Source: Rhodanobacteraceae bacterium ZG21-1
GTDB lineage: Bacteria > Pseudomonadota > Gammaproteobacteria > Xanthomonadales > Rhodanobacteraceae
DNA: 64,000 nucleotides
Reading direction: 5' to 3'
Assembly (NCBI GenBank): GCA_021390615.1
Contig: JAJEJU010000023.1
Span: forward strand, 356,686-420,685
A program made the position numbers and the translations under genes. Positions 1,834 to 64,000 of this stretch are shown here, one piece after another. The first letter of the stretch is position 1. Every line of letters begins with the position of its first letter. The notes beneath the pieces are model-generated. The model was not told the DNA's origin, did no database searches, and saw nothing but the letters and a program-made list of their open reading frames with translations.

Positions 1834-1859
1834 GCCGCGCGTTCTAAGTGACTGGCAGA

Positions 1860-1900
1860 ACACACACTTCGCACGAATAGTGCGGAGTGTGTCACTGTTC
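1860..1900 (+). terminator. Possible stem-loop terminator after bfr
   Basis: ACACACTTCGCAC-GAATA-GTGCGGAGTGTGT forms a 13-bp stem with one mismatch 27 bp after the bfr stop. The T-tract is weak. Confidence 0.3.
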
Positions 1901-1956
1901 CTTGACGCACCCGGTCGGGCGCGGCTATATCTCGGCTTTTGCCGGAACCCGTCCGC

Positions 1957-3490: not shown

Positions 3491-3859
3491 ATGGAAACTC
3501 TGCTCACCATCCCCGATTACCGCCAGGCCGGCGCGCCGCTGGTGTTCACCGAGGCCGCCGCGCGCAAGGTGCACGAACTGATCCAGGAAGAAGGCAATCC
3601 GGAGCTGAAGCTGCGCGTCTACATCAGCGGCGGCGGCTGCTCCGGCTTCCAGTACGGCTTCACCTTCGACGAAGCGCAGGCCGAGGACGACTTCGCACTG
3701 GCCCGCGAAGGCGTCACCCTGCTGGTCGACCCGCTCTCGCTGCAATACCTCACCGGCGCCGAGATCGACTACGCCGAGAACCTCAGCGGCTCGCAGTTCG
3801 TCATCCGCAATCCCAACGCCAAGACCACCTGCGGCTGCGGCTCCTCCTTCTCGACCTGA
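3491..3859 (+). CDS. erpA: Iron-sulfur cluster insertion protein ErpA (A-type carrier)
   Basis: The C-terminal CGCGxSF motif ([10 protein letters not shown]) plus an upstream Cys (GGGCSGFQY) match HesB/IscA/ErpA family length and pattern. Confidence 0.85.
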
Positions 3860-3871
3860 GCGCGCCACGGC

Positions 3872-4846
3872 ATGCAGCGGACCACGCAGCCTGAGACCAA
3901 CACCTTCGCCGGACTCAGCCTGATCCTGGATCGCGTGGCCGAGCGCCGCGACGAGCAGGACTGGGTGCAGGGCCAGATCGAATCGCCCGATGCCCGCTAC
4001 CTGCTGATCGACAGCGCCGGCGACACTTGGCTGCTGCGCGACGGCAGCGGGCTGCGCTGGCTCGATCCGACCGAACGGCAGCTGCTGGCGGACACGCCGG
4101 CCACCTTGCTCGGGCTGATCGGAACGCAGCCGCACTTCCTGCTGACGGTCGACCAGGCGCCGGTCGCCGAGGCGCTGGATTTCAAGCTCGACGCCGTGCG
4201 CGCCAGCCTGCGCAGTGCCGGCCTGCAGCTGCCGACGGCCGAGGCAGGCCTGTTCGCCTACGCCAAGGGCCTGGCCCACTGGCAGCGCGAAACCCGCCAC
4301 TGCGCCTACTGCGGCGCGCCGCTGAGCCTGGTCGCCTCCGGCCATCGCGCGCAGTGCAGCGACGCGAGCTGCGGCCGCATGCATTTCCCGCGTACCGACG
4401 CGGCGATCATCGTGATCGTCGAGCACGAGGGCGCATGCCTGCTCGGACGTCAGGCCGGCTGGCCGAAGGGGCGCTATTCCACCCTGGCCGGCTTCGTCGA
4501 GCCGGGCGAATCGCTGGAAGATGCGGTGCGCCGCGAGGTGGCCGAAGAATCCGGCGTCATCGTCGACCAGGTGCACTATCACTCCTCCCAGCCCTGGCCG
4601 ATGCCGGCCTCGCTGATGGTCGGCTTCACCGCCACCGCCCGCGGGCCGGAGATCCGGCTGCGCGACCGCGAGCTGGAGGATGCGCGCTGGTTCACCCCGC
4701 AGCAGATCGTCGACGGGCTGGCCGACGGCAGTTTCGCGCCGCCGACCGCGCTGTCGGTGTCCTACCGCCTGCTCTCGCACTGGCTGCGCGAGCGCGCCCA
4801 GCTCGAGCTCGACGCGCTGGTCGCTGCCGCACGCAAGACCGCATAG
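3872..4846 (+). CDS. nudC: NAD+ diphosphatase (NADH pyrophosphatase, Nudix)
   Basis: It has a central zinc ribbon (CAYCGAP...CSDASCGRMHFPR) followed by a Nudix box (GFVEPGESLEDAVRREVAEESG) and SQPWPMP, the canonical NudC architecture. Confidence 0.85.
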   Translation: MQRTTQPETNTFAGLSLILDRVAERRDEQDWVQGQIESPDARYLLIDSAGDTWLLRDGSGLRWLDPTERQLLADTPATLLGLIGTQPHFLLTVDQAPVAEALDFKLDAVRASLRSAGLQLPTAEAGLFAYAKGLAHWQRETRHCAYCGAPLSLVASGHRAQCSDASCGRMHFPRTDAAIIVIVEHEGACLLGRQAGWPKGRYSTLAGFVEPGESLEDAVRREVAEESGVIVDQVHYHSSQPWPMPASLMVGFTATARGPEIRLRDRELEDARWFTPQQIVDGLADGSFAPPTALSVSYRLLSHWLRERAQLELDALVAAARKTA

Positions 4847-7088: not shown

Positions 7089-8981
7089 TCAGGCAAGATC
7101 CCCGCGCAACACGCGCACCCGCGCCTCCAGCGAGGCCGCGCTCACCTGCTCCGGCGCCACCGCAGGGTCCACCACCAGTTCCACGCGGGCGCGGAAGCGG
7201 CGCGGCAGGCGCGCGCGGTGCAGCATGGAGTCGCGGCGGCTCCACACGCTGCCCCACAGGCCGCGCAAGGCCATCGGCACCACCGGCACCGGCCGGCGCG
7301 CCAGGATCTTCTCCACGCCGGGACGGAACGGCGCCACCTCGCCATCCATGGTCAGGCCGCCCTCGGGGAAGATGCACACCACTTCGCCGGCGGCCAGCGC
7401 GGCGTCGATGGCGTCGTAGGCCTGCTGCAGCACGGCGGGGTCTTCTTTCTGGCCGGCAATCGGGATCGCCTTGGCGGTGCGGAACACGAAGCGCAGCAGC
7501 GGGATGTTGAAGATCTTGTAGTACATCACGAAGCGCGCCGGGCGCCGCAGGTTGGCCATCAGCAGCAGCGGGTCCATGAAGCTGACGTGGTTGCACACCA
7601 GCAGCGCCGCGCCCTCTTCCGGCAGGTTGCGCATGCCGTCCACGCGCACCCGGTACAGCACGTTCACCAGCACCCAGGTGATGAAACGCATCAGGAATTC
7701 GGGCACCAGGGTGAAGATGTACACCGCCACCGCCACGTTCAGCAGGGCCGCGCACAGGAAGATCTGCGGCGCGTCCAGGCCGAGCGCGCCGAGACCGAGG
7801 CCGAAGCCGGCGGCCAGGCAGATCAGCACGGCGTTGAGGATGTTGTTGCCGGCGATCACTCGCGACAGCTGCTCGCGCGGCGTGCGCGCCTGCACGTAGG
7901 CGAACAGCGGCACCACGTAGAAGCCGGAGAACACGCCGATCAGGGTGAGGTCGAGCATCACCCGCCAGTTGCCGGCGCCATGCAGGAAGGCCAGCCAGTC
8001 CAGCCCCTGCACGGCGGCATGGCCGTGCCGCGCCAGGTACAGGTCGACGCCGAACGCGGTCAGGCCGAACGCGCCCATCGGCACCAGGCCGATCTCCACG
8101 CGTCGCCCCGACAGGCGCTCGCACAGCAGCGAGCCGATGCCGGTGCCCAGCGAAAACAGGGTCAGCACCAGGGTGTTCACCGAGCCGTCGCCGCCCAGCG
8201 TCTCGCGGGTATAGCCGGGCAGTTGCGCGATCAGCACGGTGCCGAAGAACCAGAACCAGGAGATGCCCAGGATCGCGTTGAACACCGCGTGGTCGCTGCG
8301 GGTGATGCCGAGCACCCGCGAAGTCTCGCTGAACGGGTTCCAGTTGAACTTGAGCTGCGGCGCGGTGGCCGGCGCCGGCGGAATGCGGCGACTGACCAGG
8401 TAGCCCGCGAGCGCCACCGCGATGGTCAGCGCTGCCGACAGCAGCGGGCCGAGCTCGACCTGGCTGTCCTTGAACTTGATCAGCATCAGCGCGCTGCCGG
8501 CGATCATGCCGATCAGGATCGCCAGCTGGGTGCCCATCTCGACCAGGCCGTTGCCGCCGACCAGTTCCTCCGGCTTCAAAGCCTGCGGCAGGATCGCGTA
8601 CTTGATCGGGCCGAACATGGTCGAGTGCAGGCCCATCATCAGCAGCACCAGCAGCAGCAGGCTCACGTGATGGGTGTAGAAGCCGAAGGCCGCCAGCAGC
8701 ATCGCAGCGATCTCGAACAGCTTCACGTAGCGGATGATCCGCGTCTTCTCGTACTTTTCGGCCAGTTGCCCCGCAGTGGCGGAAAACAGGAAGAACGGCA
8801 GGATGAACAGCGCCGGCGCCAGGTTCGTGTAGATCGAAGCGGAACGCTCGCTCAGTCCCATCTGGAACGCCACCAGGGTCAGCATGGCGTTGCGGAACGC
8901 GTTGTCGTTGAAGGCGCCCAGCGCCTGGGTCCAGAAGAACGGGGCGAAGCGCCGGCTGCCGAGCAGTTTGAATTGACTCAT
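7089..8981 (-). CDS. Fusion protein: LplT-like MFS lysophospholipid transporter + lysophospholipid acyltransferase (PlsC-type)
   Basis: The N-terminal ~400 aa form a 12-transmembrane MFS fold (MSQFKLLGSRRFAPFFWTQALGAFNDNAF...). The C-terminal ~200 aa carry the acyltransferase HX4D motif (VCNHVSFMDPLLL) and an FPEGG motif. Codon usage fits the host. Confidence 0.8.
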   Translation of the reverse strand: MSQFKLLGSRRFAPFFWTQALGAFNDNAFRNAMLTLVAFQMGLSERSASIYTNLAPALFILPFFLFSATAGQLAEKYEKTRIIRYVKLFEIAAMLLAAFGFYTHHVSLLLLVLLMMGLHSTMFGPIKYAILPQALKPEELVGGNGLVEMGTQLAILIGMIAGSALMLIKFKDSQVELGPLLSAALTIAVALAGYLVSRRIPPAPATAPQLKFNWNPFSETSRVLGITRSDHAVFNAILGISWFWFFGTVLIAQLPGYTRETLGGDGSVNTLVLTLFSLGTGIGSLLCERLSGRRVEIGLVPMGAFGLTAFGVDLYLARHGHAAVQGLDWLAFLHGAGNWRVMLDLTLIGVFSGFYVVPLFAYVQARTPREQLSRVIAGNNILNAVLICLAAGFGLGLGALGLDAPQIFLCAALLNVAVAVYIFTLVPEFLMRFITWVLVNVLYRVRVDGMRNLPEEGAALLVCNHVSFMDPLLLMANLRRPARFVMYYKIFNIPLLRFVFRTAKAIPIAGQKEDPAVLQQAYDAIDAALAAGEVVCIFPEGGLTMDGEVAPFRPGVEKILARRPVPVVPMALRGLWGSVWSRRDSMLHRARLPRRFRARVELVVDPAVAPEQVSAASLEARVRVLRGDLA

Positions 8982-41216: not shown

Positions 41217-41292
<76 letters not shown>

Positions 41293-45547: not shown

Positions 45548-45898
45548 ATGTCCGAAACTCCACTACCGCCCGTACCGGCGGCACTCCGTGAAGCACTCAA
45601 GAACTATCCGGAATACCTGAGCCGCTTGCAAGATACGCTTAATACCCTGATTCGCGAACCAGCCCCTGGCGTCGATCCTTTTGAGCGGGCAGTCTGGCTG
45701 CTGGACGGCCAAATCGAGGCCTTCTATCACGAAGCGCAATCCGAACTGAATGCCGCCCGGGCCGGCGGAGATGCCAGGACTGTCGAAGCCGCAAAAGCCA
45801 AATCCACGTTAATGATACAAGCCGGCTCAAAAGCTTCGTGGATTGCAGATAAAGACCTTTCAGACTATATCCGCGACCACCGGAGGGCATTCTCATGA
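45548..45898 (+). CDS. Putative epsilon-like antitoxin of zeta-toxin TA pair
   Basis: It is a 116-aa helical protein. Its stop overlaps the toxin start (TCATGAGT, ATGA coupling). It has an AGAGGA ribosome-binding site, and its upstream region has TTGCATT direct repeats. Confidence 0.5.
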   Translation: MSETPLPPVPAALREALKNYPEYLSRLQDTLNTLIREPAPGVDPFERAVWLLDGQIEAFYHEAQSELNAARAGGDARTVEAAKAKSTLMIQAGSKASWIADKDLSDYIRDHRRAFS

Positions 45899-47196
45899 GT
45901 CTTGTCGGAGAGATACTCCCGGTTGACCCGATGGAACGCATGAGGAAGTCGCGTCTTCCGGAGGAAGAGCACAGGCAGGTTTTCAGGGATCAAGTCCTGA
46001 ATTCAAGCGGATTTCCGCAGGCCCAAAAAGTAGATGAAAGCAGCCAGCCCAAGGTCATCATCCTGGCCGGACAACCTGGCGCCGGCAAGGGCAACCTTAC
46101 GGCTGCCGCACAGTCCGAGCTTGCATCCAAGGGAGGAGCGGTAACCATCGATCCGGATGAGCTTCGGCGATTTCACACCAACGTTGAAACATTCCGCGAG
46201 AAAAGCCCTTATACGTGGGCGGACGACACTCAGCTGGATGCAAGCGCCTGGGCCAAGTCTCTACGCGACGAAGCCATCAATGGCAGGAAGAATGTCATTC
46301 TGGACACCACGCTCGGCGAGCAGCAAAAGGCCATTGAACTGGTCGAAATGTTTCAGAAAAAGGGCTATGCGGTCGAAATACGAGCGATGGCCGTACCACA
46401 GAGCGAGAGTGAGCTCGGCGTCGACAAGCGCTTCACTGACGGCCTCGTCAGAGAAGGCTTTGGTCGTTATGTGCCGGAAAAGCTCCGGGACGACGTCTAT
46501 AAAAACCTGCCGTCCGTCCTCGACGCCGTACATGACGAATCGCTGAAACCGGAAAGTCGCTTCAAAGAAGCTATCAAAATTAGCGTTTATGACCGCGGAA
46601 GCTTTGAGGCAGACCGCCTTCACCCAACGCCTCGATATAGCCAGATAGCCACCGAGGCTCGTGATGACAAACCTGGCCAGGCCATGGACAAGGTCCGCAC
46701 GGATCGAATGAATGACCCGCAGGTCGCAAGCCAACTCAGAGATGGCTGGGCGGCTCAAAAAGATTGGCATGCAAAACTAGAAACCAACCTGCCGACCTTT
46801 GATAAGGTCAAGCAGGATTCCAGAGCTCCCTTACTCCAGGAATTGGCTCTGGAAAAGGTGGCCGACAGTGTCAACAGGCGCTTTGAAGAAGCCGAGAGGC
46901 ATCTTTCCTCCGTGAAGGAAAGGCAATCACCATCAGAAAGCCCATCGCAACCCAAGAACGAACTGCTGGAAAGAGTTCAAAACATGAGGGAATCGATGCA
47001 GAGCGGCCATTCGGTCTCTGTGAGCGACATTCATGGCCTTGTCGATCCCGTGCAGGGAGCGCAACTGCATAGTCAATCTCAGAGCGCCGTGGATTTGCAG
47101 CAAACCCTTTCAAAGCCAAGTCCGGATCGTTCGCAGACGCCCGAAGTTCACGTAACGCCGGAAACCCCGAAAGATCAGTCGAATGTTCGCAAGTGA
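45895..47196 (+). CDS. Zeta-toxin family P-loop kinase (PezT/zeta-like) with long C-terminal extension
   Basis: A Walker A motif (ILAGQPGAGKGNLT) is followed by TIDPDELRRFH (catalytic Asp context) and VILDTTLG, matching the zeta/PezT UDP-GlcNAc kinase core (about 270 aa). An additional ~160-aa S/Q/E-rich low-complexity tail follows. It has lower GC. Confidence 0.7.
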   Translation: MSLVGEILPVDPMERMRKSRLPEEEHRQVFRDQVLNSSGFPQAQKVDESSQPKVIILAGQPGAGKGNLTAAAQSELASKGGAVTIDPDELRRFHTNVETFREKSPYTWADDTQLDASAWAKSLRDEAINGRKNVILDTTLGEQQKAIELVEMFQKKGYAVEIRAMAVPQSESELGVDKRFTDGLVREGFGRYVPEKLRDDVYKNLPSVLDAVHDESLKPESRFKEAIKISVYDRGSFEADRLHPTPRYSQIATEARDDKPGQAMDKVRTDRMNDPQVASQLRDGWAAQKDWHAKLETNLPTFDKVKQDSRAPLLQELALEKVADSVNRRFEEAERHLSSVKERQSPSESPSQPKNELLERVQNMRESMQSGHSVSVSDIHGLVDPVQGAQLHSQSQSAVDLQQTLSKPSPDRSQTPEVHVTPETPKDQSNVRK

Positions 47197-47958
47197 TCCA
47201 TAGGATTCAGTGACCATTGGGCGCGCGGAGATCTTCCGCGCGCCGCTTTCATCTATGCAGTGCTCTCTTTGACCGCAAGGCTTTTGAGCTGCACTCGAAG
47301 CCGAGCCGCCTTGGGCGGAAATTTTCGTCCGGATTTAAGCCAGCTGCGAGATCCGCCGCCCACTGCCTGGATCAAGTCGCGCTGCGCCTGGCGGCTCGCC
47401 CCGGGCGAGGATTCCGGCTCGTCTTCAGTGGATATCAACGGATCGAGCGAGCATCGCGCTCGAACTCGCATGGATGCCCAGATCGTGCCCGACCGTTCTT
47501 TCCAACCTGGGCAGGACCGTTCGGCCGGACGGCGGCAACCATCGCCCATGAAATCGCCGATGAATATGCCGCTGCCCTGCCGATCCCATCTCTGTGCGAA
47601 AGCGGCGCCCAACCCCAGCAAGGCCAGAACCGCAGCGAGTACCGATGCCAGGCCCGATTGGCGGTGCCGGCCGGCGCGGTTCAACCGGCTTGCCGGCAGC
47701 ATGCTGTCTTGCACAGTTAGCCGCGACGATTGCGGCGAGACTTTCGCCCAGGCGGAGCGCTGCATCCTCGATCTCCGCGACCAGGGGGTTCGCCGACATG
47801 CACACCGACGATGCACGATCCGGGACTCGCTGCCTGTGCGCGGCATTTGCCGCCGCGCCACGGCACCACAACACGTGCCGTGTATCGGCCCAGCCAAGCG
47901 CATCGTCCTCGGCGCGCCTGGCGCTGACTCCGCCCCCGACCTGTCCGTCGCCGATCCG

Positions 47959-49122
47959 ATGACACATGCTCCCCGCATCGCCATCGTCGGCGCCGGCCCC
48001 GGTGGCTTGACCCTGGCCTGCATGCTGCAGCAGGCCGGGCACTCCTTCACCCTGTTCGAGCTAGACGGCCACGCCCAGGCACGCCCGCAAGGCGGCACGC
48101 TCGACCTGGACCAGGAGATGGGACAGCTTGCGCTTCAACGCGCCGGGCTGATGGCCGCATTCCGTCGCCGGGCAAGGTACGAGGACCAGGAAACCCGTCT
48201 TTTCGACAAGACCGGCAAGCTGCTGTTCGAAGACTGCGGCGCGCCCAGCGACGAACGTCCCGAAATCGATCGGGCGCAACTGCGCGAACTGCTGCTGGAG
48301 GGCTTGCCGGAAGCCTCGATCCGGTGGAACCACAAGCTCCGCGAAGTATTGCCTCGCGCCGACGGCAAGTACGACCTGGTGTTCGACAAGGGCGTCTGCG
48401 ACGGCTTCGACCTGGTCGTCGGCGCCGACGGCACCTGGTCGCGCGTGCGTCCGCTGGTTTCTTCGTATAGCCCGCAGTACACCGGCGTCACCTTCATCGA
48501 ATTCGGCATAGACGATGCGGATCGCCGGCACCCGGCGCTGGCCCGCGTGGTAGGCCACGGAACGATGTCCGTGCTGGGAGACGGCATGGGCCTGTTCGCC
48601 CAACGCAACGCCGACGCCCATCTGCGCGTCTACGCGACCTTCCGCGCGCCCAAGGAATGGGCCAGCAGCACCTTCGACTTTTCCCGCCCGGCCTCGGTGC
48701 TGGCCGAGCTCAAGGCGCAATGCAGCGGATGGGCGCCGCTATGGCATGCGCTGATCGACGCCGGCAACGATCAGCTGCAGGCCCGCCGGATCTTCGCCCT
48801 GCCGGTAGGGCATCACTGGCTGCATCGACCAGGCATCACCCTGCTCGGCGACGCCGCCCACGTCATGTCGCCCTATGGAGGCAACGGGGTGAACATCGCC
48901 ATGTTCGATGCCGCCGAACTGGGCAGGCGATTGACCGAGCAGGCGGACTGGTCGGCGGCCGTCCAGGCCTACGAGCGCGACATGTTCGAACGTGCCCGCC
49001 CCTATGCGCTGTTCGCGGCCGAAGGCGTGGCGATCGCGCTCTCGCCGGCTTATCTGAAGCACGAAATCGACGCCCTGGAGAGAAGGCGCGCACGGCGAGC
49101 GGAACCGAGCACGCCGGCCTGA
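47959..49122 (+). CDS. FAD-dependent monooxygenase (TetX/UbiH-like flavin hydroxylase)
   Basis: It has a GxGxxG Rossmann motif (RIAIVGAGPGGLTLACML), DGxxS (VVGADGTWSRVR) and a C-terminal GDAAH motif (LLGDAAHVMSPYGGNGVN). It is convergent with the NRPS-PKS operon end. The start was reset to the ATG at 47959 inside the track ORF 47260..49122. Confidence 0.85.
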   Translation: MTHAPRIAIVGAGPGGLTLACMLQQAGHSFTLFELDGHAQARPQGGTLDLDQEMGQLALQRAGLMAAFRRRARYEDQETRLFDKTGKLLFEDCGAPSDERPEIDRAQLRELLLEGLPEASIRWNHKLREVLPRADGKYDLVFDKGVCDGFDLVVGADGTWSRVRPLVSSYSPQYTGVTFIEFGIDDADRRHPALARVVGHGTMSVLGDGMGLFAQRNADAHLRVYATFRAPKEWASSTFDFSRPASVLAELKAQCSGWAPLWHALIDAGNDQLQARRIFALPVGHHWLHRPGITLLGDAAHVMSPYGGNGVNIAMFDAAELGRRLTEQADWSAAVQAYERDMFERARPYALFAAEGVAIALSPAYLKHEIDALERRRARRAEPSTPA

Positions 49123-49257: not shown

Positions 49258-50511
49258 TCAGCTTGTCCGGGTCGCCTCCACCGGCGATACGCGCGAGGCG
49301 CGCATGGCCGGCGCCAATACCGCGCCCTGCCCCAGCAGCAGCAGCAGCAGCATGCCCAGCAGGACGTAAAGCGGAGACAGGCGCTTCATCTCGAAGGCGC
49401 CCATCATCCATTGGTTGAGTCCGACGGCCAGCAGGGCGCCGACGATCACGCCGCCCGCACTGATCAGGAAATTCTCCAGCAGGAAGTAATGCAGGATGCT
49501 CTGCTGAGTCGCTCCCAAGGCGCGGCGCACGCCGATCTGCTTGCGGCGCTGGCCGACCCAGAAACTGGTCAGGCCCACGATGCCGGCTGCCGTCACGATC
49601 AGCAGCACGGCGCTGACGGCGCCCATGAAGGTGGCGATGCCGATATCGGTCTTGTAAGCCTGCGCGCGCACCTCGGCGAATGTACGCACACCGCGGCGGT
49701 CCGGGATCACCCGCATGCGATTGGTGCGGAACAGCGCCTGCGGCACGCTCTTGCTGATCGCTTCCAGTTGGCCCGGCTGCGCCCGCACCAGATAGACATT
49801 GCGCTCGTCGGTAAGCTGGATCGGCGTCAACACGACATAGTCGCTGAATGCGTCGGTCCAGCTGCCGGGCCAAGGCACCTGCAGCTGCTCGACCACGCCG
49901 ATCACCGTGCTCGGCGTGCCGTTCTTGATCAGATAAATCGACTTGCCGAGGATGCTGCCGCCCGGATACAGGCGATCCGCAAGCGCCTTCGTGACGATCA
50001 CCGCCGGCGTGGGAACGAAGGTCTTGGAGTCGGCAGTGGCCACTTCGTCCGAGCGGAAATTGCGCCCTTCCAGCAGCCTGGCCCCCAGCGTCGCCAATGC
50101 ATGATCGTCGGTGGAGTACTGGGCCGCCCTGGTGATCGCCTTGTCGGTCGCCGGGTCCAGCCTTACGCCGGTCACCCGCCCGCCCACTCGCAGCGGAAAG
50201 GAATCGCTGAGCGTCGCGTCGCGCACGCCGGGCAGCTGGCGAATCGCCGCCAGGTCGGTGCGGATCAGCGCAGGCACGGCGTCGTTGCTGGCGCCGACCC
50301 AGCTGTTCTCGATCGCCAGCAGGCCGCTTTCTTCCACCCCGGAGGGGCGCGATATCCGATCGACCCGCTGCTTGATGATAAACAGGGCGTTGCAGACGAC
50401 CGCCAGGGTCAAGGCGATCTGCAAAGTGATGAGAATGGTGCCGGCCTTGTGCTTGCGCAGCGCGGCAAGGATCGGCTCGATCTGCAGGGTCACGGTTTGC
50501 CAGGTCATCAA
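49258..50511 (-). CDS. FtsX-like ABC transporter permease (MacB/LolCE-type topology)
   Basis: It has an N-terminal transmembrane helix (ILITLQIALTLAVVCNALFII), a large periplasmic domain and three C-terminal transmembrane helices with a conserved RRALGAT segment (RKQIGVRRALGATQQSIL). Confidence 0.8.
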   Translation of the reverse strand: MMTWQTVTLQIEPILAALRKHKAGTILITLQIALTLAVVCNALFIIKQRVDRISRPSGVEESGLLAIENSWVGASNDAVPALIRTDLAAIRQLPGVRDATLSDSFPLRVGGRVTGVRLDPATDKAITRAAQYSTDDHALATLGARLLEGRNFRSDEVATADSKTFVPTPAVIVTKALADRLYPGGSILGKSIYLIKNGTPSTVIGVVEQLQVPWPGSWTDAFSDYVVLTPIQLTDERNVYLVRAQPGQLEAISKSVPQALFRTNRMRVIPDRRGVRTFAEVRAQAYKTDIGIATFMGAVSAVLLIVTAAGIVGLTSFWVGQRRKQIGVRRALGATQQSILHYFLLENFLISAGGVIVGALLAVGLNQWMMGAFEMKRLSPLYVLLGMLLLLLLGQGAVLAPAMRASRVSPVEATRTS

Positions 50512-50518: not shown

Positions 50519-51832
50519 TCAATTCGACTTCAGCTGCCATGCCGGCTGCACTTGTGCCGCCCGCCAGGTGGGATAGAAGGCCGCCAGCAGCGTGGCCACG
50601 ATCGCGACCAGCAGGGTCAGCGCGATCAGCACCGCGTCGAGCCTGACCAGCCTGGCGATGTTCGGATCGAAGACCAGACCAACCCCGAGCATGCCGGCGC
50701 CGGTCAGCAGCAGGCCCAACAGGCCGCCTGCCGCACCGATCGTCCCCGCCTCGATCAGGAATTGCTTGTAGATGTCGTTGCGCGATGCGCCCAGCGCGCG
50801 CCGCAGGCCGATCTCTCCCGATCTGCGCAGGCTCTTCGCCAGCAGCAGGCCGATCGTGTTGACCAGGCAGATCAGCAGGAAGCCCAGCGACACCAGCATG
50901 GACATGCGCGATTCGGGGGGTACCACGTGCCGGTCGGCCAGCCACCGGGTCACATCGCTCAAGCGCACGTTCGGCGCCCAGTGGAAGCGTCCCGCACGCT
51001 GCTGTTCGGCGGCATAGCCCTGCAGGAACTGGCGATAGGCATCCGCCTCGGATGCGCTGGGCAGCTCCGCCCAGAACGCGATCCACACGCACTCCGAACG
51101 CAGAAAGTCCTCCCATCCGCTGCCGGTATCCTGATTGCACGCCGTATCGCCGGCAGTCGGCATCTGCAGATCGATCGCGCGGGTGAACGGCACGAACAAC
51201 TGCACCGCATCGCTGAAGCCCGAGGTGTTCACCGGATCGAAGAACAGCGGCTGCGGGTTCCAGGTATCCATCACGCCGGTGATCCGATAGTCCCGGCCGT
51301 CCAGGTTGATCGTGCGCCCGACGCTGTTGGCGCCGCCGAACAGGCGCTGATTAGTGTCGCGGCCGATCACCGCCACCGCGGCGTGCGCCTGATCGTCCGC
51401 CGCCGTCCAACCGCCGCCGTATTCGAAGGGGATATCGAACATCGCGAAGGTGTCGGCGTAGGCCGCATAGCTCAGCGGACGGAAGGGCAGCCGGTTCGGA
51501 TCGCTGGGCACCAGAGACGGCGCGATCGGGAACAGCGCGGTCTGGCGCGGCGCCTTGTGCGCCAGCATCAGGGCCGTCGCGTCCGCATAGCTCAACGCAT
51601 CCGGCGGATCGCCCCCGTTCTCGGCCGCCCTGGCGGGGCCCCAGTTGTCGATCTGGGGCGCGAACAACTGCGCCGATTTCTGCGGGATCGGATTATTGGA
51701 GGTGGCGCGAAAAACCGCATAGCTGGTGATCGAAGCCGATACGCCGAAGCCCATGGCGATAATCATCAACAACGTCAGTGCCGGGTTCCGACGCAAACTG
51801 CGCAGCCCAAGACGGGCGTAATAGGCAAACAT
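50519..51832 (-). CDS. FtsX-like ABC transporter permease (paralogue)
   Basis: It has the same architecture: LTLLMIIAMGFGVSASITSY..., a periplasmic domain and ...EIGLRRALGASRNDIYKQFLIEAG... It is 8 bp upstream of the paralogue, and no ATPase gene is adjacent. Confidence 0.8.
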   Translation of the reverse strand: MFAYYARLGLRSLRRNPALTLLMIIAMGFGVSASITSYAVFRATSNNPIPQKSAQLFAPQIDNWGPARAAENGGDPPDALSYADATALMLAHKAPRQTALFPIAPSLVPSDPNRLPFRPLSYAAYADTFAMFDIPFEYGGGWTAADDQAHAAVAVIGRDTNQRLFGGANSVGRTINLDGRDYRITGVMDTWNPQPLFFDPVNTSGFSDAVQLFVPFTRAIDLQMPTAGDTACNQDTGSGWEDFLRSECVWIAFWAELPSASEADAYRQFLQGYAAEQQRAGRFHWAPNVRLSDVTRWLADRHVVPPESRMSMLVSLGFLLICLVNTIGLLLAKSLRRSGEIGLRRALGASRNDIYKQFLIEAGTIGAAGGLLGLLLTGAGMLGVGLVFDPNIARLVRLDAVLIALTLLVAIVATLLAAFYPTWRAAQVQPAWQLKSN

Positions 51833-51927: not shown

Positions 51928-53571
51928 TCACAGCACCAGCTCGCTGCAGCCGTACAGACGCTCGGACTCGATGCCGTTCGAGGCGCAATACTCGACGAAA
52001 CTATTGGACTCGAGGATCTGGATGCTGTCGGGCTGGTACTGCAGGCCCATCAGCGCGCGCAACCACGGCTCCTGGCCCATCGCATAGACGTAGGCGCGCG
52101 ACGGCTTGATCTTCGCCACCGCATTCCTGGCCCGCTCGAAATTCGAGCCCGACAGCCGGCGGGACTCGTCGTCCTTGCGGCTGGGCTGCCGATTCAGCAG
52201 CGGCCCGTACAGCCAGGTCAGCGGCGCGCCGTGGCATTCCATGCCCAGGAACACCACGTCGACGCGACCGAGCACGCCGGCGAGATGATCGAAAATCCTT
52301 TCGTCGACGGTGTCCGAGTCGGCCATGAAGAGCAGCCGCTGCCCCGCCAGTTCGACCAGCAGGCAGTGCTTGCTGAGCACGTCGAGGCCCGAGTGCTCGC
52401 CGATGAACGGCAGGCTGGTCAGCGAACCGCCCGGCAGCTCGATCGCGTCCAGTGGGTCGACCACTCGCACGCGGCGGAAGCCCAGGGTCGCGAGCATCAG
52501 CTTCAAGGACGGATCGGCGACATTGCCGGCATCGTTGCGCGGCACGATCACCTCGCCCACGCGCTCGCGCAGCTGCAGCAGCATGTCGGGCACCAGATGA
52601 TCCTGATGGCCGTGCGTCAGCACCAGATAATCGATCTTGTCCGGCAGGTCGACGAAGGTCAGCGTGGCCTCCTGCTGGTCTCGCTCCCATGCGGTCAGCG
52701 CATCGATCAGGATGGCCACGCCGGCCGCCTCCACCAGTACGCAGGCATGACCGAAATACCTGATGCGCAGGCCCTGGCCGTCGAAGTTCGGCGCATTGCG
52801 CCCCGGCGCCTGGTTGGTGAAGAAACGCTCGAAGCCGCCTTCGTCGACCAATTCCGGCGGCAGGCTGGCGCGAATCTCGGCGGCGCTCATCGGCTGGTAG
52901 CGCAACTTCGCCAGCAGATCGACCCGCTCGTCTAGGAACGGCATCTTGAGCACCACCCGCTCGGGCGACTTCAGCAGCGGCGTGCTCATGAAAAAAGTCC
53001 GCTCGATCGAGCGCGTGGTATGCACGCAGATTTCCTGCAGCTCGGTGGTATGCGCCCGCCAGCGCTGATACGACAACTCTTCGAGCACGCGGATCTTCGG
53101 GTGGCTGTTGATGTCGTAGGTCAGCTCCACCAGGCCGCGCAGCGAGTCGGGAACCTGGGCGTAGAACTCGTCGAGACAGAAGCCCTTGGCGCCGCCCTGC
53201 AGCTTGAGGTCGAACTCCTGGAAATCCTGGGCGATTTTCAGCAGCTCGCCGCCGCGCCCGTGGATGTCGTCGATCAGCTCGCGCACCGCCGGAATGTCGC
53301 TCATCGCCAGGCAGACGAACGGCCCACCGAGCATGTCGGGATCTTCGGCGGCGGCCACATGCACCGACGGACTGGCGACGAAGGACTTCAGATTCGGCAG
53401 CTGCCGGTTGGCCAGATTCATGGCGTACTGCAGTGGCGGCAGCAGATGCGGCCAGGTCGGCCAGCCGCACATCAAGGGTTCTATCTTCACGTCCGATTTC
53501 AGATACCACTGATCCTTGCCCGGCGAAGCCACTTCGCCGGACGCCGTCGTCTCACCGCTTACGCGCTTCAT
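51928..53571 (-). CDS. MBL-fold metallo-hydrolase with ~300-aa N-terminal extension
   Basis: The C-terminal half has the metallo-beta-lactamase motif set (...[15 protein letters not shown]...[11 protein letters not shown]...FIGEHSGLD...). The N-terminal 300 aa match no recognisable domain. A GGAGA ribosome-binding site is present, and its ATG overlaps the NRPS stop by 4 bp. Confidence 0.8.
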
Positions 53572-56500
53572 GCCTGTCTCCTGTCTACATTTCTGACCAG
53601 CTGGATCAGCGTGGATTCGAAGCTTCTCGCCAGCTTGCGCAGCGTCTCTTCGTGATGCAGCTGATCGCTGTATATCCACGAGCAGCGCAGCACGTCGTCC
53701 ACGAAAACCGTCTGCAGTTCGATGTCATTCCTGCGCATGGCGCGGTCCGGCAGCACATAGACCGGGCCGTCCGGCAGGGGGATTCTTCCCAGCAGGCCGG
53801 CCGCCTGCGACGGCGCCTTCTGCTCGCCCTGGTGGTTCAGACACAGGGCACAGGCCTGCCAGTCCATGCCGCGCTCGAAGCGCTGCGCGGCGCTGGCCCA
53901 GTAGGCCAGTCCGGCCGCGTCCGCACGCTCGCCCTGGACGACGATCTGCCGCACCAGCGTGGCCAGGTCGCGCGGGCCGCGGAAATCGATCGTCACCGGC
54001 ACGCCGGCGGTGAACCAGCCGACCGAGCGCGAAAGATCGCCCTGCAGATGCAGTAGTTCGCGCCCGTGGAACAGCTGCTCCACGGCGACGGCGTCGTGCC
54101 CCGTCCACAACTGGATCGCCTGCGCGAGTGCAATCAGCAGCAAGTCTTCGACGCGTATGCCCAGCTGGCTGGCGGCGGCCATGCAGGCCTGCGGCGAAAT
54201 CTCCGGCGCCGATACGACCAGCCACTGCGTCGACGCGACGGTGTTGTTTCCGGCCGGATGATCCTTCGGCAGCGGCTGCTGCAAGGATGCCTCGCGCGCC
54301 GCCCCTTCCAGCTCGGCCTGGCCTTGTGCGGTGGCGAAATGCTCGGCGACCGCGCGCGCCCAGGCCGAGAAGCTGGTGCCCGGCGGCGGCAGCTGCGCCG
54401 CAGCGCCTTCCTCGCACTGCAGGCAGAGCTGCTGCAGCTCCTCGGCAAGCACCGGGTACGACAGCACGTCGTTGGCGAAGTGATGGATCGCCAGCACCAT
54501 GCGCTGCGGCCGGGCATCGCCGTAGTCGAACAGCACCGCCTTCAGCAGGCGGCCCGACGCCAGATCGATGTCGCGCCGCAGCTGATCGATCTCGCCGGCC
54601 ACCCGCAACGACAGCTCCGGCTCGGCGACGGCCGAGAGATCGACAACGCTGCACAGGGCTTCCGCAGGCGTAGGCGCCGGCCCTTGTCGTTGCTGCCATG
54701 ACCCGTCGCTCTCGGACACCACCAGGCGCAGCGCGTCATGGCGCGCGACCAGGGCGTGCAGCGCCTTGCGCAGCGCCTCCGCCGACACGCGCCGGCTCAA
54801 TTCGTAGTGGTAGGTGTTGGAGAGTATCGATATCTCGTCCCGCCACAGGGCGAGCATGATGCGTTGCACCGGCGTCAGCGGCACGCGGTCGTCCTGCACG
54901 CCCTGCTCGACGGTCGCCGATGCGGGAGCGGCTTCGGCGACCTTCACCATCGCCGCCAGCTCGGCGATGGTCTGGTAGCGGAACAAGTCCTTGGGCACGA
55001 ACACCATGCCTGCCCGCTTGGCCAGGCTGACCAGCTGGATCGCTGTGAAGCTGTCGCCGCCGAGCTCGAAGAAATTCTCGTCGATGCCGACCTGCTCGCG
55101 CTTCAGCAGCTCGCAGAACAGGCCCGCGAGCAGCCGCTCCTGCGCTGTTCTCGGCTCGCGCCGCGTGGCCGCTGCGAGATCCGGCGGCGGCAGCCGGTGG
55201 CGATCGACTTTGCCGTTGGCACTGAGCGGCAGGCTGTGCAGGGCGACCACGACGGCCGGCACCATATGCTCCGGCAGCTGCTCGGCCATGAACTGACGCA
55301 GCGTTGCGGGCACGGCGTCCTGGCCGGCCGCCGCCACGGCATAGGCGACCAGTTGCTTTTGTCCGGGTCGATCTTCGCGCAACAGCACGGCTGCCTGGGC
55401 CACGCTGGAGTGGCGGGTCAGACAGGCCTCGATTTCGCCCAGCTCGATGCGGAAACCACGCAGCTTGACCTGGTCGTCGGTGCGGCCGAGATAGTCGAGC
55501 CGCCCGTCGGGCAGCCAGCGCACCAGGTCGCCGCTGCGATAGAGCCGGCTGCCGGGCGCACCGAAAGGATTCGCCACGAAGCGCGAAGCGCTCAGGCCCG
55601 GGCGATTCAAATAACCGCGGGCGAGTCCGTGGCCGGCGATATAGAGCTCGCCGGGCATGCCGGCCGGCACCGGCTTCAGCGCATGGTTCAACACATACAC
55701 CTGTGTGTTCCAGATCGGCCGGCCGATCGGCACCAGGCCCTCCCGATGATTCTCCAGGCGCACCTCGTGGAACACGCAGCCGACCACCGTCTCGGTCGGT
55801 CCGTACTCGTTGACGATGCAGGCGTGCGGCGAATGCGCGAACCAGTCGGCGACGGTCGCAGCCGGCAGTGCTTCGCCGCCGACGACCACGTGATGCGCCA
55901 GATCGACGCCGCTCGACGACGACAGCAGCTGATTGAGGATGGCGAGCTGGGCCGGCGGCAGTTTCAGCAGGCTTAGTCCGCGCGGGCCGTCGGCGCCGGC
56001 GAGGGTTTCGAACTCCTCCGACTCCGGCAGCAAGGTGACCGCCTTGCCGCAGAGCAGGGGCAGGAACAGGCTGGTGACGGTGGCGTCGAAGGACAGCGAG
56101 GTACTGATCGCCGCTCCCGTTCCCTGCTCCATCTGGTAGGCGGCGGCAGCCCAGGCGGCGTAGTTGTGCAGCCCGCCGTGGGTGATCACCACCCCCTTCG
56201 GCCTGCCGGTCGAGCCCGAGGTGTAGATCACGTAGGCCGGATGCTGTGCGCCGGCTTTTGCGGGAGGCGCGCTGGCGGGCTTGCGCGCGATCGCGGGCCA
56301 ATCCAGGTCGAGCATGATGGCCCGTCCGCGATAAGCCGGCAGCCTGCCTTCGGCGGACTCGACGGTGAGCAGCACCGGCGCCAGCGAATCCTCCAGCATG
56401 AAGGAGATGCGCTGGGTGGGATAAGCCGGGTCGATCGGGAGATAGGCGCCGCCGGCCTTCAGGATGCCCAGCAGGCCGATCACCATTTCCGGCGAGCGCG

Positions 56501-58184
56501 GCACGCACAGCGCGACGACGATCTCGGGCCCCACGCCCGACCGCTGCAGGTAATGCGCGAGCTGGTTGGCCTGCTGATCCAGCTCGCGATAGCTCAGCGT
56601 GCGATCGCCGTGGATCAGCGCCGCCGCGTCCGGCGAACGCTGCGCCTGCTCCTCGAACCACTCGTGGATGCGCCGTTCGCGCGGAAACTCCATGCCGGTG
56701 GCATTCCATGCCTGCAGCAGGCGCAGCCGCTCGTCCGGATTCAACAGCTCCAGCTGTTCCAGCGGCTGCTCCGGGCGCGCGACCACTTCCTGCAGCAGCC
56801 GGCCGAAGTGTTCGACGAAACGCTCGATCGTCGGCGCGTCGAACAGATCGGCCGCGTATTCGAGGCCGCCGCGGAAACCTTCCTCGGTTTCCCCGATCAC
56901 CAGAGTCAGGTCGAACTTCGCGGTGACATGCCGCGAACCGATCAGCTCCAGCTGCAGATCGCCCAGCTCGAAGTTGCCGGCGGCGCCGCTGCGCAGTTCC
57001 ATCAGCACCTGGAACACCGGCTGGCGCGACAGGTCGCGGGTCGGCGCCAGTTCCTTCACCAGCCGCTCGAACGGAAGATCCTGGTTGGCGTAGGCGGCCA
57101 GCGCGGTCTCCTTCACCTGGTGCAGCAATGCCCTGAAATCCTTCGCCCGATCCAGCCGCGCCCTGATCGCCAGCGTGTTGACGAACAGCCCGATCATGTG
57201 TTCCGTCTGCGGGTGTGTACGGCCCGCCGTGGAGGTGCCCACCACCACGTCCTGCTGTCCGCTCCACTGCGACAGCGCCAATTGGAAGGCCGCCATCAGC
57301 AGCATGAACAGGGTGACTTCTTCCTGCTTCGCCAGTCGCGCGACGGCGTCGCTCAATGCCTTGGGCAGGACGATCGGGCAGGTGCCGCCCCGATGGCTCG
57401 GCACCACCGGCCGCGCACGATCCGTGGGCAGCTCCAGCACCTCGGGTGCGCCGTCCAGCTGCTTGCGCCAGTGCTCCAGCTGCCGGGCCAGCGCCTCGCC
57501 TTCGGAAGACCTGCGCTGCCACAGCGCGAAGTCGGCGTATTGCGCGGCCGGCTCGGCAAGCGGCGACGTCTCGCGGCGGCAGTAAGCCTCGTAGAGGCTT
57601 TTCAGTTCCCGCTCCAGCACGCCGTTGGACCAGCCGTCCGAAATGATGTGGTGCATCGCCAGCGCCAGCACGTGCTCCTTCGGCCCCAGCCGCAGCAGGC
57701 TCACTCGGAACAGCGGGCCGCGCGCCAGATCGAAGGGGCGCAGGAATTCCTGCCGCACGAAGGCCGGCAGCACGTCGCCGTCGCCTGCGGCGGCCAGCTC
57801 GTCCACGCTGCGCCGCAGAATGGAGAAATCCTCCGCGCGCCCGATCAGCTGATGCGCCTGGCCGTCCACCGCGTCGAAGCGCGTGCGCAGGCTCTCGTGG
57901 CGGCGCACCAGTTCGCGGAAGCTGTTTTCCAGCGCGTCCTCGTTCAACTCGCCCACCAGGCGCATGGCGATGAACATGTGGTAGGCCGAGCCCACCAGGC
58001 CCATCTGCTCGACGAACCACAGCCGCTCCTGTGCATACGAAAGCGGCAGCCGCTCGCCCGGCTGGCGCAACCCCTGCAGCGAACCCGCCGCCGCGCCGGC
58101 CTGCCGCGCGTTCCTGCGGCTCGCCAGCTGCTTCAACTGCTGCGGCGAAAGCTGGGCGATGCGATCTGCGATGGAACCGTTCAC
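53568..58184 (-). CDS. Non-ribosomal peptide synthetase module C-A-T plus terminal condensation-like (Ct) domain, no TE
   Basis: The C domain has HHIISDGWS (HHxxxDG). The A domain has [51 protein letters not shown] and [20 protein letters not shown]. The PCP has [15 protein letters not shown] second C-like domain with HHFANDVLS sits at the C-terminus. The protein is 1538 aa. Confidence 0.92.
53571..54887 (-). other. Terminal condensation-like (Ct) domain of NRPS (approximate)
   Basis: It spans aa ~1100-1538 ([10 protein letters not shown]...[11 protein letters not shown]...). It shows a C-domain fold signature downstream of the PCP in place of a thioesterase. Boundaries are estimated by residue counting. 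Confidence 0.6.
55185..56672 (-). other. Adenylation domain of NRPS 53568..58184 (approximate)
   Basis: It spans aa ~505-1000 from the A1 (LSYRELD) through the A10 region. The A4 segment is [10 protein letters not shown] and A5 is [12 protein letters not shown]. Substrate is not assignable by eye. Confidence 0.6.
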
Positions 58185-61100
58185 GCGTATTTCTCGCTGC
58201 TGGTGGTTTCGCTCACGGCTCGGACATCGCGGGACTGACCATCCAGCACGACGGCGGCGTCGCCCGCCTCAAGAGTCTCCAGGTAGGCGCCCATGTCGCC
58301 TTCGTCGATCTCGTCGGCGAGCTGCGCCACGATCTCTTCGGCCAGTGCCTTGACCGTGCCGCTGGCGGAAATCAGCACCTTGGGCGAGATCCGCACGCCG
58401 TACTCGTCCCTGATCCGCGAGATCACCCGCAGGGCGATCAGCGAATCGCCGCCCAGCGACATGAAGGTGTCGCTGCGACCCACGGCATCGATGCCCAGCA
58501 CTTCCTCCCACATCGCCGCCATGCTGGCCTCGAGCTCGCTCCAGCCGCTGGCGATGACGGGCGCCTGCACCGGCGCAGCCTGCAGCGGCGCCTCGGTGCG
58601 CGAAGCCGCGGGCTGCTCGTGCACCGGCGCCTCGCGCTTCCTGACCTCGATCCAATAGCGCTGGCGCTGGAACGGATAGGCCACCAGGCCCACCCGCGAA
58701 CGCCGCTCGCCGCGATGAAAGGCCTGCCAGTCGACGGCTGCGCCCAAGGTCCACAGACGGGCCAGCTGCCCGAGCAGCGCGCTGCGGTCGGACGAACCAT
58801 CGCTAGCCAGCGATCCCACGTAGGCATGCTCCGGCGCGCTGCCGAACTGCTGCCGGGCCAGGCCGGTCAGCGCCTGGCCGATACCCAGCTCGAGCCAGAT
58901 CGTCGGACTGCCGCCGGCAGCGGCAGCCAGAGCCGCCTGGAAATCCACCGGCTCGCGCAAGTGACGCGCCCAGAACGAGGCCTCCAGTGGCGCGGTCGCG
59001 CTCACCGGCGCACCGGTCAGGCACGACACATAGCGGATGCCCGGCGTCGCGTAGCGGCAGGAGCGCGCCGCCTGTTCAAGCCCGGCCATGGCCGGCTCCA
59101 TCAGGCGCGAGTGGAACGCATGCGACACCGACAGCCGGTGATGCTCCACGCCGCGCGCGGCGAGCGTGGCGGCCAGCGCGTCGATCGCCGCCGCAGGCCC
59201 GGACAGCACGCACTGCGTCGGCGCATTGATTGCAGCCACCGACAGTGCTTCGCCCAGCAGCGCCTGCACCTCGCCCACCGGCAGTCGCACCGCCAGCATG
59301 GCGCCGGCAGGCTGCTCGCTGACCAGCTGCGCCCGGCGCGCCAGCAGCGCCACCGCGTCATGCAGCGAAACGGCTCCGGAGATGCAGGCCGCGATGTATT
59401 CGCCGACGCTGTGCCCGACCACCGCGGCGGGCTTCACACCCCAATGCATCCACAGCTTCGCCAGGCTGTAGCCCACCGTGAACACGGCAGGCTGGGTGAA
59501 CAGCGTGCGATCGATGGATGCCGCCGCCTCCGTGCCGGCCGGCGCGCAGATGACGCTGCGCACGTCGAAGCCCAGGCGCTCCTGGAACAGCGCCGCGCAC
59601 TCGTCGATGCGGGCGCGGAAGTAGGCGTCCGTGTCGTACAGCGCCTGCACCGCTCCCGATCGCTGCGAACCCTGCCCCGGGAACATGAAGACCACCGGGC
59701 GATCCACATGCTGGTCGTGCACGTCCTGGGCCGCCACCGCCTCGTCGCGCAGGGCGCGGATCAGTTCCTCGCGATGCTTCGCCACCACGCTGCGCCGATG
59801 GGCGAAGCGGCGGCGGCCGCGTTGCAAGGTGTAGGCCACGTCCGCCAGATCCAGCTGCGGCCGCTCCTCGAGGTGGCGCGCCAGCGCGGCGCCGAGCTGC
59901 CGCAGCGCTTCGCCGGTATGCGCCGACAGCGGGAATACCTGGGCGGAGGGATCGGCCGCCGATGGCGCCGGCCGGGCCGGCGCTTCCTCCACCACCACGT
60001 GCGCATTGGTGCCGCCCATGCCGAACGAGCTGACGCCAGCGCGGCGCGGCTTGCCGTCGCTGTGCCAGGGCGCGTACTTGGTGCTCACGTAGAACGGGCT
60101 GGTGGGGGATTCCAGCGCCGCATTCGGCCGGCTGAAGTTCGCCGACGGCACCAGGTGCTTGTGCTTCAGGCACAGCACGGCCTTGATCAGCCCGGCCACG
60201 CCCGCCGCGCAGTCCAGGTGGCCGATGCTGCCCTTGATCGAGCCCAGCGCGCACCACTGCTTGTCGGCCGTGCCGGTGTCGAAGGCCTCGCCCAGCGCGG
60301 TCAGCTCGACCGCGTCGCCCAGCACGGTGCCGGTGCCATGGCCTTCGAGCATGCCGATGTCGGTCGGCTGCAGCTCGGCGAAGGCCAGCGCCGAGGCGAT
60401 CAGCCGCGCCTGCGCCTTGATGCCCGGCGCGGAAAATCCGGCCTTGTCGGCGCCGTCGTTGTTGACCGCGCTGCCGCGGATCACCGCATGGATCTCGTCG
60501 CCGTCGCGAAGCGCCTCGTCCAGCCGCTTGAGCACCACGATGCCGCAGCCGCTGCCGCCGATGGTGCCGGTGGCGTCGGCGTCGTAGGCGCGACAGATGC
60601 CGTCCCGCGAGGAGATGCCGCCTTCCTCGTAGATGTAGCCGCTGTCCTGGTTCAACTTGATCGACACGCCGCCCGCCAGGGCCATGTCGCTCTCGAAGGT
60701 CAACAGGCTCTGGCAGGCCATGTGCACCGCGACCAGCGAACTCGAGCAGGCGCTCTGCACCGTGACGCTGGGCCCGTTCAGGCCGAGCTTGTACGACACC
60801 CGCATGGTGAGGAAGTCTTTCTCGCCGTCGAGCGAGGTCTGGTGCCAGTTGCCCGAGTTGGATTCGATCAGCTCCTGCATGCGGGTATACAGGTACAGAT
60901 TGCTGCCGCAGCCGCCGTAGATCCCCACGATGCCCTTGTACTGCTCGGGGTCGTAGCCGGCGTGCTCCAGGCCTTCCCAGGCGCATTCGAGGAACAGCCT
61001 GCCCTGCGGATCGAGGCTGCTCGCCTGTCTCGGGCTGTAGCCGAAGAAGCCCGCGTCGAAGCGGTCGTAATCCGCGAGCGGCACGGTGGCCTTCACGTAA

Positions 61101-61277
61101 TGCGGGTTCTGGATCAGCGAGGGACTCACCCCGGCCGCGGCCAGCTCGGCATCGGACAGCTTGACGATCGAATGGCGTCCGCTTTTCAGCAGCTGCCACA
61201 ACTCGTCGACGCTCTTCGCCCCCGGAAAGCGGCCCGCCATGCCGATGATGGCAATGGCATTGGCGCTGTTTGCTTGC

Positions 61278-61285
<8 letters not shown>
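58181..61285 (-). CDS. Type I polyketide synthase module KS-AT-ACP (no KR/DH/ER)
   Basis: The KS domain has [15 protein letters not shown] (active Cys), EGHGTGT and GHLDCAAG (His/His). The AT domain has FPGQGSQ, GHSVGEY and HAFHS. The ACP has LGGDSL. The N-terminal [13 protein letters not shown] is typical of a hybrid KS downstream of an NRPS module. The protein is 1034 aa. Confidence 0.92.
58316..58543 (-). other. ACP/thiolation domain of PKS (approximate)
   Basis: It spans aa ~915-990 with GGDSL at ~945-948. Confidence 0.55.
58796..59698 (-). other. Acyltransferase domain (approximate)
   Basis: It spans aa ~530-830, with GQGSQ at ~537, GHSVGE at ~624 and HAFHS at ~722. The HAFH motif is more typical of malonyl-CoA-specific ATs (inference). 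Confidence 0.55.
59984..61261 (-). other. Ketosynthase domain (approximate)
   Basis: It spans aa ~9-434, with Cys180 in TVQSACSSS, His315 in EGHGTGT and His356 in GHLDCAAG. Confidence 0.65.

Positions 61286-64000
<2,715 letters not shown>

Follow-up and report, generated by a model that had tools for sequence, protein, structure and literature searches.

A ketoreductase-free polyketide synthase subunit in a nonribosomal peptide synthetase line of Rhodanobacteraceae bacterium ZG21-1

BlmVIII of the bleomycin pathway is reportedly a polyketide synthase (PKS) module that extends a (beta-hydroxy)histidine within a nonribosomal peptide synthetase (NRPS) line, the chain then passing to a condensation (C) domain of an NRPS, and NosB of nostopeptolide biosynthesis in Nostoc is said to be a PKS station of an NRPS line without a ketoreductase (KR), nostopeptolide A keeping the ketone. 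In this work we analyzed a gene of Rhodanobacteraceae bacterium ZG21-1 that encodes a free-standing, minimal PKS subunit composed of ketosynthase (KS), acyltransferase (AT) and carrier (T) domains. It is located at positions 58181..61285, on the minus strand, of a 64,000-nucleotide stretch of contig JAJEJU010000023.1, which is referred to as the window. Judged by its sequence and gene context, the encoded protein is very probably a functional type I PKS subunit of the non-reducing kind. It would serve as a single station of a long NRPS-PKS line in this Frateuria/Dyella-like member of the Rhodanobacteraceae, and would build a His-derived keto unit before Asn. BlmVIII reportedly differs from it in carrying methyltransferase (MT) and KR domains, and is likened here by description only.

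The best match of the PKS protein among solved structures is PDB 8xju (E 1e-228), which we take to be ClbI of the colibactin pathway of Escherichia coli from a comparison of the printed 8xju alignment with ClbI of E. coli CFT073 (WP_000829570.1); 8xjy is likewise assigned to ClbI. The two proteins are 41% identical end to end. Both are free-standing KS-AT-T subunits of about 1010–1034 aa encoded between NRPS genes (clbH and clbJ in the case of ClbI), both carry HAFH in a malonyl-type AT, and neither has reductive domains or an N-terminal docking domain, the KS of the window protein beginning at residue 9. ClbI is, however, not an orthologue: the neighbours in the window are unrelated to clbH, clbJ and clbG, and the upstream partner and the product class differ. 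In the alignment, the wild-type CFT073 ClbI (locus L087, 158-3190, minus strand) presents a Ser at the position of the KS Cys180 (ITVQTSSSTS; TSSSTS against SACSSS in the window). Many KS-AT-T proteins of about 1010 aa from Nostoc are 45–49% identical to the window PKS.

Other described systems share the absence of a KR. The Amopa modules of minutumamide and nostopeptolide KVJ3 are KR-less PKS stations that extend an amino acid in NRPS lines, and the ketone is kept in the 4-amino-3-oxo acid of the Amopa-containing peptides (PMC12184294). These modules are likened to the window PKS by their published description, not by sequence, and differ in that the unit is C-methylated and that Phe, not His, is extended. 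In the pepstatin (PMC12081711) and pyridomycin (PyrF/Pyr2; bioRxiv 10.1101/2021.10.14.464479) pathways, a KR-less PKS also extends an amino acid to a beta-keto intermediate, but there the ketone is reduced by a dedicated trans-acting enzyme, the F420H2-dependent PepI and Pyr2, respectively, whereas none is visible in the window. In addition, the pepstatin enzymes are dissociated and iterative, while the line of the window is a colinear multimodular operon. The sequence-only reading of the window had connected modules of this type with beta-keto-amide and statine-like units, a connection that the literature backs (PMC12184294, PMC12081711).

The frequency of the design was assessed among database matches and in a sample of loci. 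The sample comprised 88 sequences (87 fetched loci, numbered with the prefix L, plus the window), on which KS, AT, KR, T, C, adenylation (A) and epimerization-like (E-like) domains were mapped by phmmer probes; the loci had been collected through their PKS homology, each with flanks of 10 kb, and relatives of the query are over-represented among them. Of the 120 best database matches, 48 have the architecture KS-AT-T and 60 KS-AT-KR-T. In the sample, the arrangement of a KS-AT-T module between NRPS modules was found 16 times, plus eight with an uncalled T, against 18 times with a KR. The KR-less design is about as frequent as the KR-containing one among the relatives, and it is an ordinary design with characterised precedents. 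In Rhodanobacteraceae, no characterised product of such a cluster was found in a limited literature search.

The PKS subunit and its place in the line

The sequence-only reading had marked the PKS interval without stating a strand, and had described a minimal module of KS, AT and acyl carrier protein (ACP) between NRPS modules. It had found no KR, dehydratase (DH), enoylreductase (ER) or MT, had noted a complete Cys/His/His set in the KS, and had taken the HAFH of the AT as a hint of malonyl-CoA. All of this was borne out by the domain analysis. The interval is exactly an ATG-to-TGA open reading frame (ORF) of the minus strand that encodes 1034 aa; the ORF 58031..61324 on the opposite, plus strand is a high-GC shadow frame, the GC content at third codon positions (GC3) of the minus-strand frame being 0.89. 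The KS (60134..61261, minus strand; residues 9-384) is matched by the Pfam families ketoacyl-synt (residues 9-258, 1e-69) and Ketoacyl-synt_C (266-384, 1e-36), and is followed by KS-AT linker families at residues 395-514. The AT (58742..59692, minus strand; residues 532-848) is matched by Acyl_transf_1 (1e-51) and also by the NCBIfam FabD model (1.7e-42). The carrier domain (58334..58519, minus strand; residues 923-984) is matched by PP-binding (1e-13), has its Ser948 in the motif LGGDSL and is followed by a poorly conserved C-terminal tail of about 45 aa with an omega of about 1.

The KS triad consists of Cys180 (motif SAC; codon at 60746..60748), His316 (EGHGTGT) and His356 (GSIGH). The AT presents GHSVGE with the nucleophile Ser626, Arg651, and HAFH at residues 722-725. 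GHSVGE together with HAFH, shared with the AT of ClbI, is the malonyl-type signature, and points to malonyl-CoA as the predicted substrate of this AT. The catalytic residues of the KS, AT and carrier are invariant across 10 aligned orthologues. No match to KR, DH, ER or MT was obtained with Pfam or NCBIfam in the 1034-aa protein, and a KR probe that matched 60 of the 120 best homologues did not match it. Only about 65 residues separate the post-AT motif YPFQRQRYW (residue 870) from the carrier domain, so there is no hidden KR, DH, ER or MT. As the best PDB matches of the carrier domain are peptidyl carrier proteins (PCPs), a PCP-like reading of it was considered, and dropped because within the sample of loci the carrier sequence does not separate PCPs from the ACPs of hybrid modules.

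The PKS gene is located between two NRPS genes of the same strand. The upstream gene (61278..64000), which runs past the end of the window, is seen in its 3′ part and encodes a partial C domain, an A domain, a PCP (GGHSL) and a tail of about 45 aa. The downstream gene (53568..58184) encodes a subunit of 1538 aa with a C domain (residues 46-489), an A domain (510-992), a PCP (1018-1080; GGDSF) and an E-like domain (1096-1538). The stop of the upstream gene and the start of the PKS gene overlap by 8 nt (ATGACTGA), while the PKS stop and the GTG start of the downstream gene overlap by 4 nt (GTGA), and Shine-Dalgarno-like sequences (GGGAGA and GGAGA) are present at the gene junctions. These features indicate that the PKS gene is translationally coupled to the PCP-ending NRPS gene upstream and to the C-starting one downstream. 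From this position it follows that the next C domain takes a beta-ketoacyl-S-carrier donor, as the sequence-only reading had also proposed, unless reduction occurs in trans.

The same reading had considered the KS to be of hybrid type on account of its N-terminus. In the sample, 127 KSs were labelled by the domain that precedes them. In the window, the upstream ORF ends in A-PCP directly before the KS, an arrangement repeated in L081–L086. The 23 context-labelled KSs nearest to the window KS are all NRPS-fed, and with the orthologues removed the 15 nearest still are. A one-nearest-neighbour (1-NN) assignment leaving out one locus at a time was right for 67 of 72 NRPS-fed and 36 of 37 PKS-fed KSs, so the KS sequence carries a signal of the partner type. 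On the other hand, the columns of the KS N-terminal motif have a near-identical composition in NRPS-fed and PKS-fed KSs of the sample. The motif thus does not discriminate in this sample; at the N-terminus, only the absence of a docking region, a trait also of ClbI, would fit a hybrid KS. Gene context and whole-domain similarity indicate that the window KS is NRPS-fed.

The PKS has orthologues at 76% and at 63–65% identity, with the same Pfam content and equally without KR. The cluster of L086 (76%) is fully syntenic with the window, comprising NRPS, PKS, a C-A-T-(E-like) subunit, a CmlA-like hydroxylase, two permeases and a flavin (FAD) monooxygenase; L081 and L088 (65%) show this arrangement with an aminotransferase in place of the monooxygenase. 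In L083 and L084, the PKS follows a module with a Ser code and precedes three further modules. In L085, the PKS has tandem carrier domains and is followed by C-A(Phe)-T with two E-like domains, and then by transporters. In the gene calls, the L085 PKS (693-4084) is divided into a KS-AT protein of 821 aa and a carrier protein of 317 aa, which is either a frameshift or assembly error or a real split. Since this PKS can be preceded by a His or a Ser module and followed by an Asn or a Phe module, it behaves as a portable working module. The ratio of nonsynonymous to synonymous substitution rates (dN/dS, Nei-Gojobori) against the 76% orthologue is 0.08 for the KS, 0.20 for the AT and 0.24 for the T domain, values that speak for strong purifying selection on the KS.

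These results also bear on whether the PKS subunit could be a relic that the line skips, the upstream PCP handing the peptide straight to the C domain of the downstream subunit. Examples of skipped modules exist in general, and the omega of the C-terminal tail points to neutral evolution of that part of the PKS; nothing specific speaks for a relic in this cluster. The invariance of the catalytic residues, the purifying selection on KS, AT and T alike, the coupling on both sides and the retention of the gene in four different cluster variants all argue against a skipped subunit, which we regard as extremely improbable.

The partners of the PKS were examined as well. The acceptor C domain (56718..58049, minus strand) carries the motif HHIISDGWS and is an in-line domain of LCL type. 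Its identity to C domains located after plain A-T modules of the orthologous NRPS is 58–62%, and does not exceed 28.5% with those located after epimerization (E) domains, which identifies it by sequence as an ordinary, unspecialised in-line LCL-type domain. A DCL-like reading drawn from its motif was overturned by this context-labelled comparison. The ten-residue codes of the A domains were taken by alignment to the downstream A domain, with positions anchored on the A4, A5 and A10 motifs. The upstream code, DSALVAEVWK, predicts His and is one residue off DSALIAEVWK, a His code said to tolerate a beta-hydroxyl group (PMC12283262). The downstream code, DATKVGEVGK, is read as Asn (PMC3547906).

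A longer part of the line is seen in the metagenomic locus L088, which reaches 10 kb further upstream and is still NRPS there; a protein search with the upstream NRPS fragment of the window gave generic NRPS matches only. Its visible line reads ...A-T, C-A(DAWLLGQVVK)-T, C-A(Phe)-T-C-A(DAWLLGHVVK)-T-C-A(DGTKVGHVGK, Asp-like)-T-C-A(Phe)-T-C-A(His)-T, KS-AT-T, C-A(Asn)-T-(E-like), where commas separate subunits. The NRPS of five modules and 5398 aa that lies upstream of the PKS begins with a TubC_N-type docking domain (L088 3812-3960); one or more further NRPS subunits therefore feed this NRPS, and the line has at least eight amino-acid modules plus the PKS.

Proposed chemistry and fate of the ketone

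In the mechanism that we propose, the upstream module would load His at the end of the peptide, which in the 65% orthologous line would read ...Phe-X-Asp-like-Phe-His, and the AT would move malonyl from malonyl-CoA to Ser948. The peptidyl chain would move from the PCP to Cys180, and a decarboxylative Claisen condensation by the KS would follow, yielding peptidyl-4-amino-5-(imidazolyl)-3-oxopentanoyl-S-T. Because there is no cis KR, the beta-ketoacyl thioester would reach the C domain unreduced, and the LCL-type C domain of the next subunit would join it to PCP-bound Asn. The result would be a beta-keto amide, that is, a gamma-amino-beta-keto acid residue ('His-acetate'). A CmlA-like hydroxylase would probably beta-hydroxylate one PCP-bound residue (His, Asn or other), the line appears to end at an E-like domain without the catalytic Glu, and the adjacent permeases would export the product.

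The survival of the ketone into the final product is the least certain step of this mechanism, with retention the likelier outcome. The module might work in the same way and its beta-ketone be reduced by a separate enzyme, either on the carrier, by a short-chain dehydrogenase/reductase (SDR) of the Pyr2 type, or after release, as by PepI, which would give a statine-like, His-derived 4-amino-3-hydroxy acid. Such trans ketoreduction of the product of KR-less modules has precedent (PMC12081711; bioRxiv 10.1101/2021.10.14.464479), and the upstream part of the cluster and the remaining genome lie outside the sequence covered. The sequence-only reading had proposed a search for a trans-acting KR: no SDR, KR or F420-type reductase gene was found between 1 and 53 kb of the window, nor on the conserved 3′ side of the syntenic L081 and L086, a result that covers the three syntenic clusters on that side and leaves the 5′ part beyond it. 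The conserved tailoring genes of these clusters encode oxygenases (diiron and FAD), not reductases, and the characterised relatives keep their ketone (PMC12184294). We therefore consider reduction in trans possible and rather unlikely. Since the conserved flanks contain no reductase, the gamma-amino-beta-keto unit is the likeliest on-line product.

Some observations weigh against the proposal of an NRPS-fed, non-reducing station that joins a His-derived keto unit to Asn, and are taken together here. The neighbour-joining (NJ) tree of the KSs is unresolved at its deeper nodes and places the clade of the window KS as sister to a PKS-fed clade, so that the placement of the KS suggested by the sequence-only reading was supported by the nearest neighbours, all NRPS-fed, but not by the deeper tree. 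The His and Asn substrate calls come from the ten-residue codes alone. In addition, the 5′ end of the line lies beyond position 64000 of the window and beyond L088, and a trans-acting reductase, a starter module and a thioesterase could lie there or elsewhere in the genome.

The terminal E-like domain

The last domain of the downstream NRPS (53571..54899, minus strand) has the fold and motifs of epimerization domains. Its best PDB matches are the E domains of PvdL, TycA (2xhg) and GrsA, and the label of C-terminal condensation domain (C_T) was rejected in favour of E-like on the strength of these matches. Canonical E domains of the sample show the motifs PLTPIQHWFF, HHLxVDGVSW, EGHGRE and FNYLGQ and are followed by a C domain, and those at subunit ends have a tail of 34–44 aa. 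The window domain has Leu in place of the catalytic Glu of EGHGRE (EQLFHGRE), carries HHFANDV as its His motif and lacks a C-terminal tail of the COM type. It also differs from a canonical epimerization domain in that neither a C domain nor a further NRPS gene comes after it. The HH...D motif of the condensation superfamily is kept.

Relatives of this domain were recognized by sequence comparison in L086 (9224-10546), L081 (16291-17580), L085 (8832-10124), L007 (17992-19281) and L043 (18290-19489). The window, L086, L081 and L085 domains share EQLxHGR (Glu replaced by Leu), HHFANDV/A and CLNHQGE (CFNHQGE in L081). The domains of L007 and L043 are more distant, with the catalytic Glu replaced by Leu or Met and the remaining motifs nearer to the canonical ones. 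In all six cases, the domain is the last one of its protein, has a tail of 0–17 aa and is followed by non-NRPS genes (hydroxylase or transporters). No thioesterase (TE) or reductase (R) domain is in view in the window or in the sequence of the fetched loci. In a search of 1.84 billion representatives, the Glu-less clade was recovered in single-module proteins of 1538–2053 aa, and a second Glu-less group was found directly after a canonical E domain (C-A-T-E-(E-like)); of the 32 terminal E-type domains listed by that search, 22 are canonical.

The assembly line of the window thus seems to end at a Glu-less E-like domain, which may act in chain release, serve as an inert docking domain as in LgrA, or recruit the hydroxylase in the manner of I domains. 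The latter lack the second His and are placed at the N-termini of modules (PMC13638107). In the linear gramicidin line, the NRPS subunit LgrA likewise terminates in an inactive epimerase-like domain (PMC10510592), but this domain passes the chain to the NRPS subunit LgrB, whereas the window domain has neither a following NRPS gene nor a COM-type tail.

Cyclising release is another role that was weighed. The E-like domain might use the activated methylene or the ketone of the beta-keto-acyl-Asn thioester to release the chain as a Dieckmann-type tetramate, a lactam or a lactone. Its module comes directly after the PKS module in the window, L086, L081, L085 and L043, no TE is seen, and the retained HH...D motif would be compatible with such a reaction. 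The association with the PKS is, however, an artefact of how the loci were chosen, since each of them was selected for its PKS and taken with flanks of 10 kb. Moreover, two NRPS modules stand between the PKS and the module of the E-like domain in L083 and L084, the PKS module before it carries a KR in L007, and we know of no Dieckmann cyclase derived from an E domain. For these reasons, cyclising release by this domain is considered very improbable.

A wider proposal would combine the two parts of this work: an undescribed peptide-polyketide with a His-derived 4-amino-3-oxo acid that retains its ketone ('histidyl-acetate', possibly beta-hydroxylated), made by an assembly line in which the E-like domain takes the terminating role of a TE or R domain, as a new kind of chain-release or partner-recruiting domain recurring in several phyla (C-A-T-(E-like) and C-A-T-E-(E-like)). 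Taken as a whole, this proposal is unlikely to hold in full.

Remaining genes of the cluster and significance

Next to the last NRPS gene, positions 51928..53571 (minus strand) encode a CmlA-like diiron beta-hydroxylase of the metallo-beta-lactamase fold (547 aa). Its ATG overlaps the NRPS stop codon (ATGA), an arrangement of translational coupling, and the gene occupies the equivalent position in L081 and L086. It is followed on the minus strand by two MacB_PCD/FtsX permease genes (50519..51832 and 49258..50511), each corresponding to one half of the ADOP duplicated-permease model; the pair is kept in L081 and L086, and from gene content it is likely the exporter of the product. No ABC ATPase gene adjoins the two permease genes. 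A siderophore was considered as the product, in view of the beta-hydroxylase, the MacB-type permeases and the L081 aminotransferase, and was set aside: the visible codes are mostly Phe- or Leu-like, and no receptor or iron-regulation genes were seen.

An FAD_binding_3 flavin monooxygenase is encoded on the plus strand at 47260..49122, for which the best NCBIfam model is Tet(X) (1e-45, below the cut-off). The ORF begins with a stretch of 240 aa without Pfam match, the match starting at residue 240, and the true start is probably near position 47977. This gene is the probable 3′ border of the cluster, and a member of the same family is also located at the cluster edge in L086.

Between the cluster and the housekeeping genes lies an islet of about 6 kb, which comes after a tRNA-Met (41217-41292), extends up to 47196 and has 58–59% GC in a genome of about 68%. 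Besides a zeta-toxin gene (45895-47196), it contains small, mostly unannotatable ORFs, and it resembles a small integrated element. On the far side of the islet from the cluster are the housekeeping genes rpoD, topA, dprA, fmt and purD and genes for lipopolysaccharide (LPS) glycosyltransferases. The RpoD protein shares 90–94% identity with those of Frateuria, Dyella, Fulvimonas and Rhodanobacter, in agreement with a member of the Rhodanobacteraceae. A gene at 7089..8981 (minus strand), unrelated to the cluster, encodes a fusion of an MFS transporter with a PlsC-type acyltransferase domain, similar to lysophospholipid transporter/acyltransferases.

The PKS described here adds one more case to the well-understood insertion of gamma-amino-beta-keto acids or, after trans reduction, statine-type acids into peptides. 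As a portable subunit that feeds an unspecialised C domain, it may be of interest for assembly-line engineers. The neighbouring E-like domain is a more unusual feature than the PKS itself, and could teach something new on chain termination. If the product does contain a His-derived keto or statine unit, this would be an attractive protease-inhibitor-like pharmacophore, and the cluster would be a reasonable target for genome mining.

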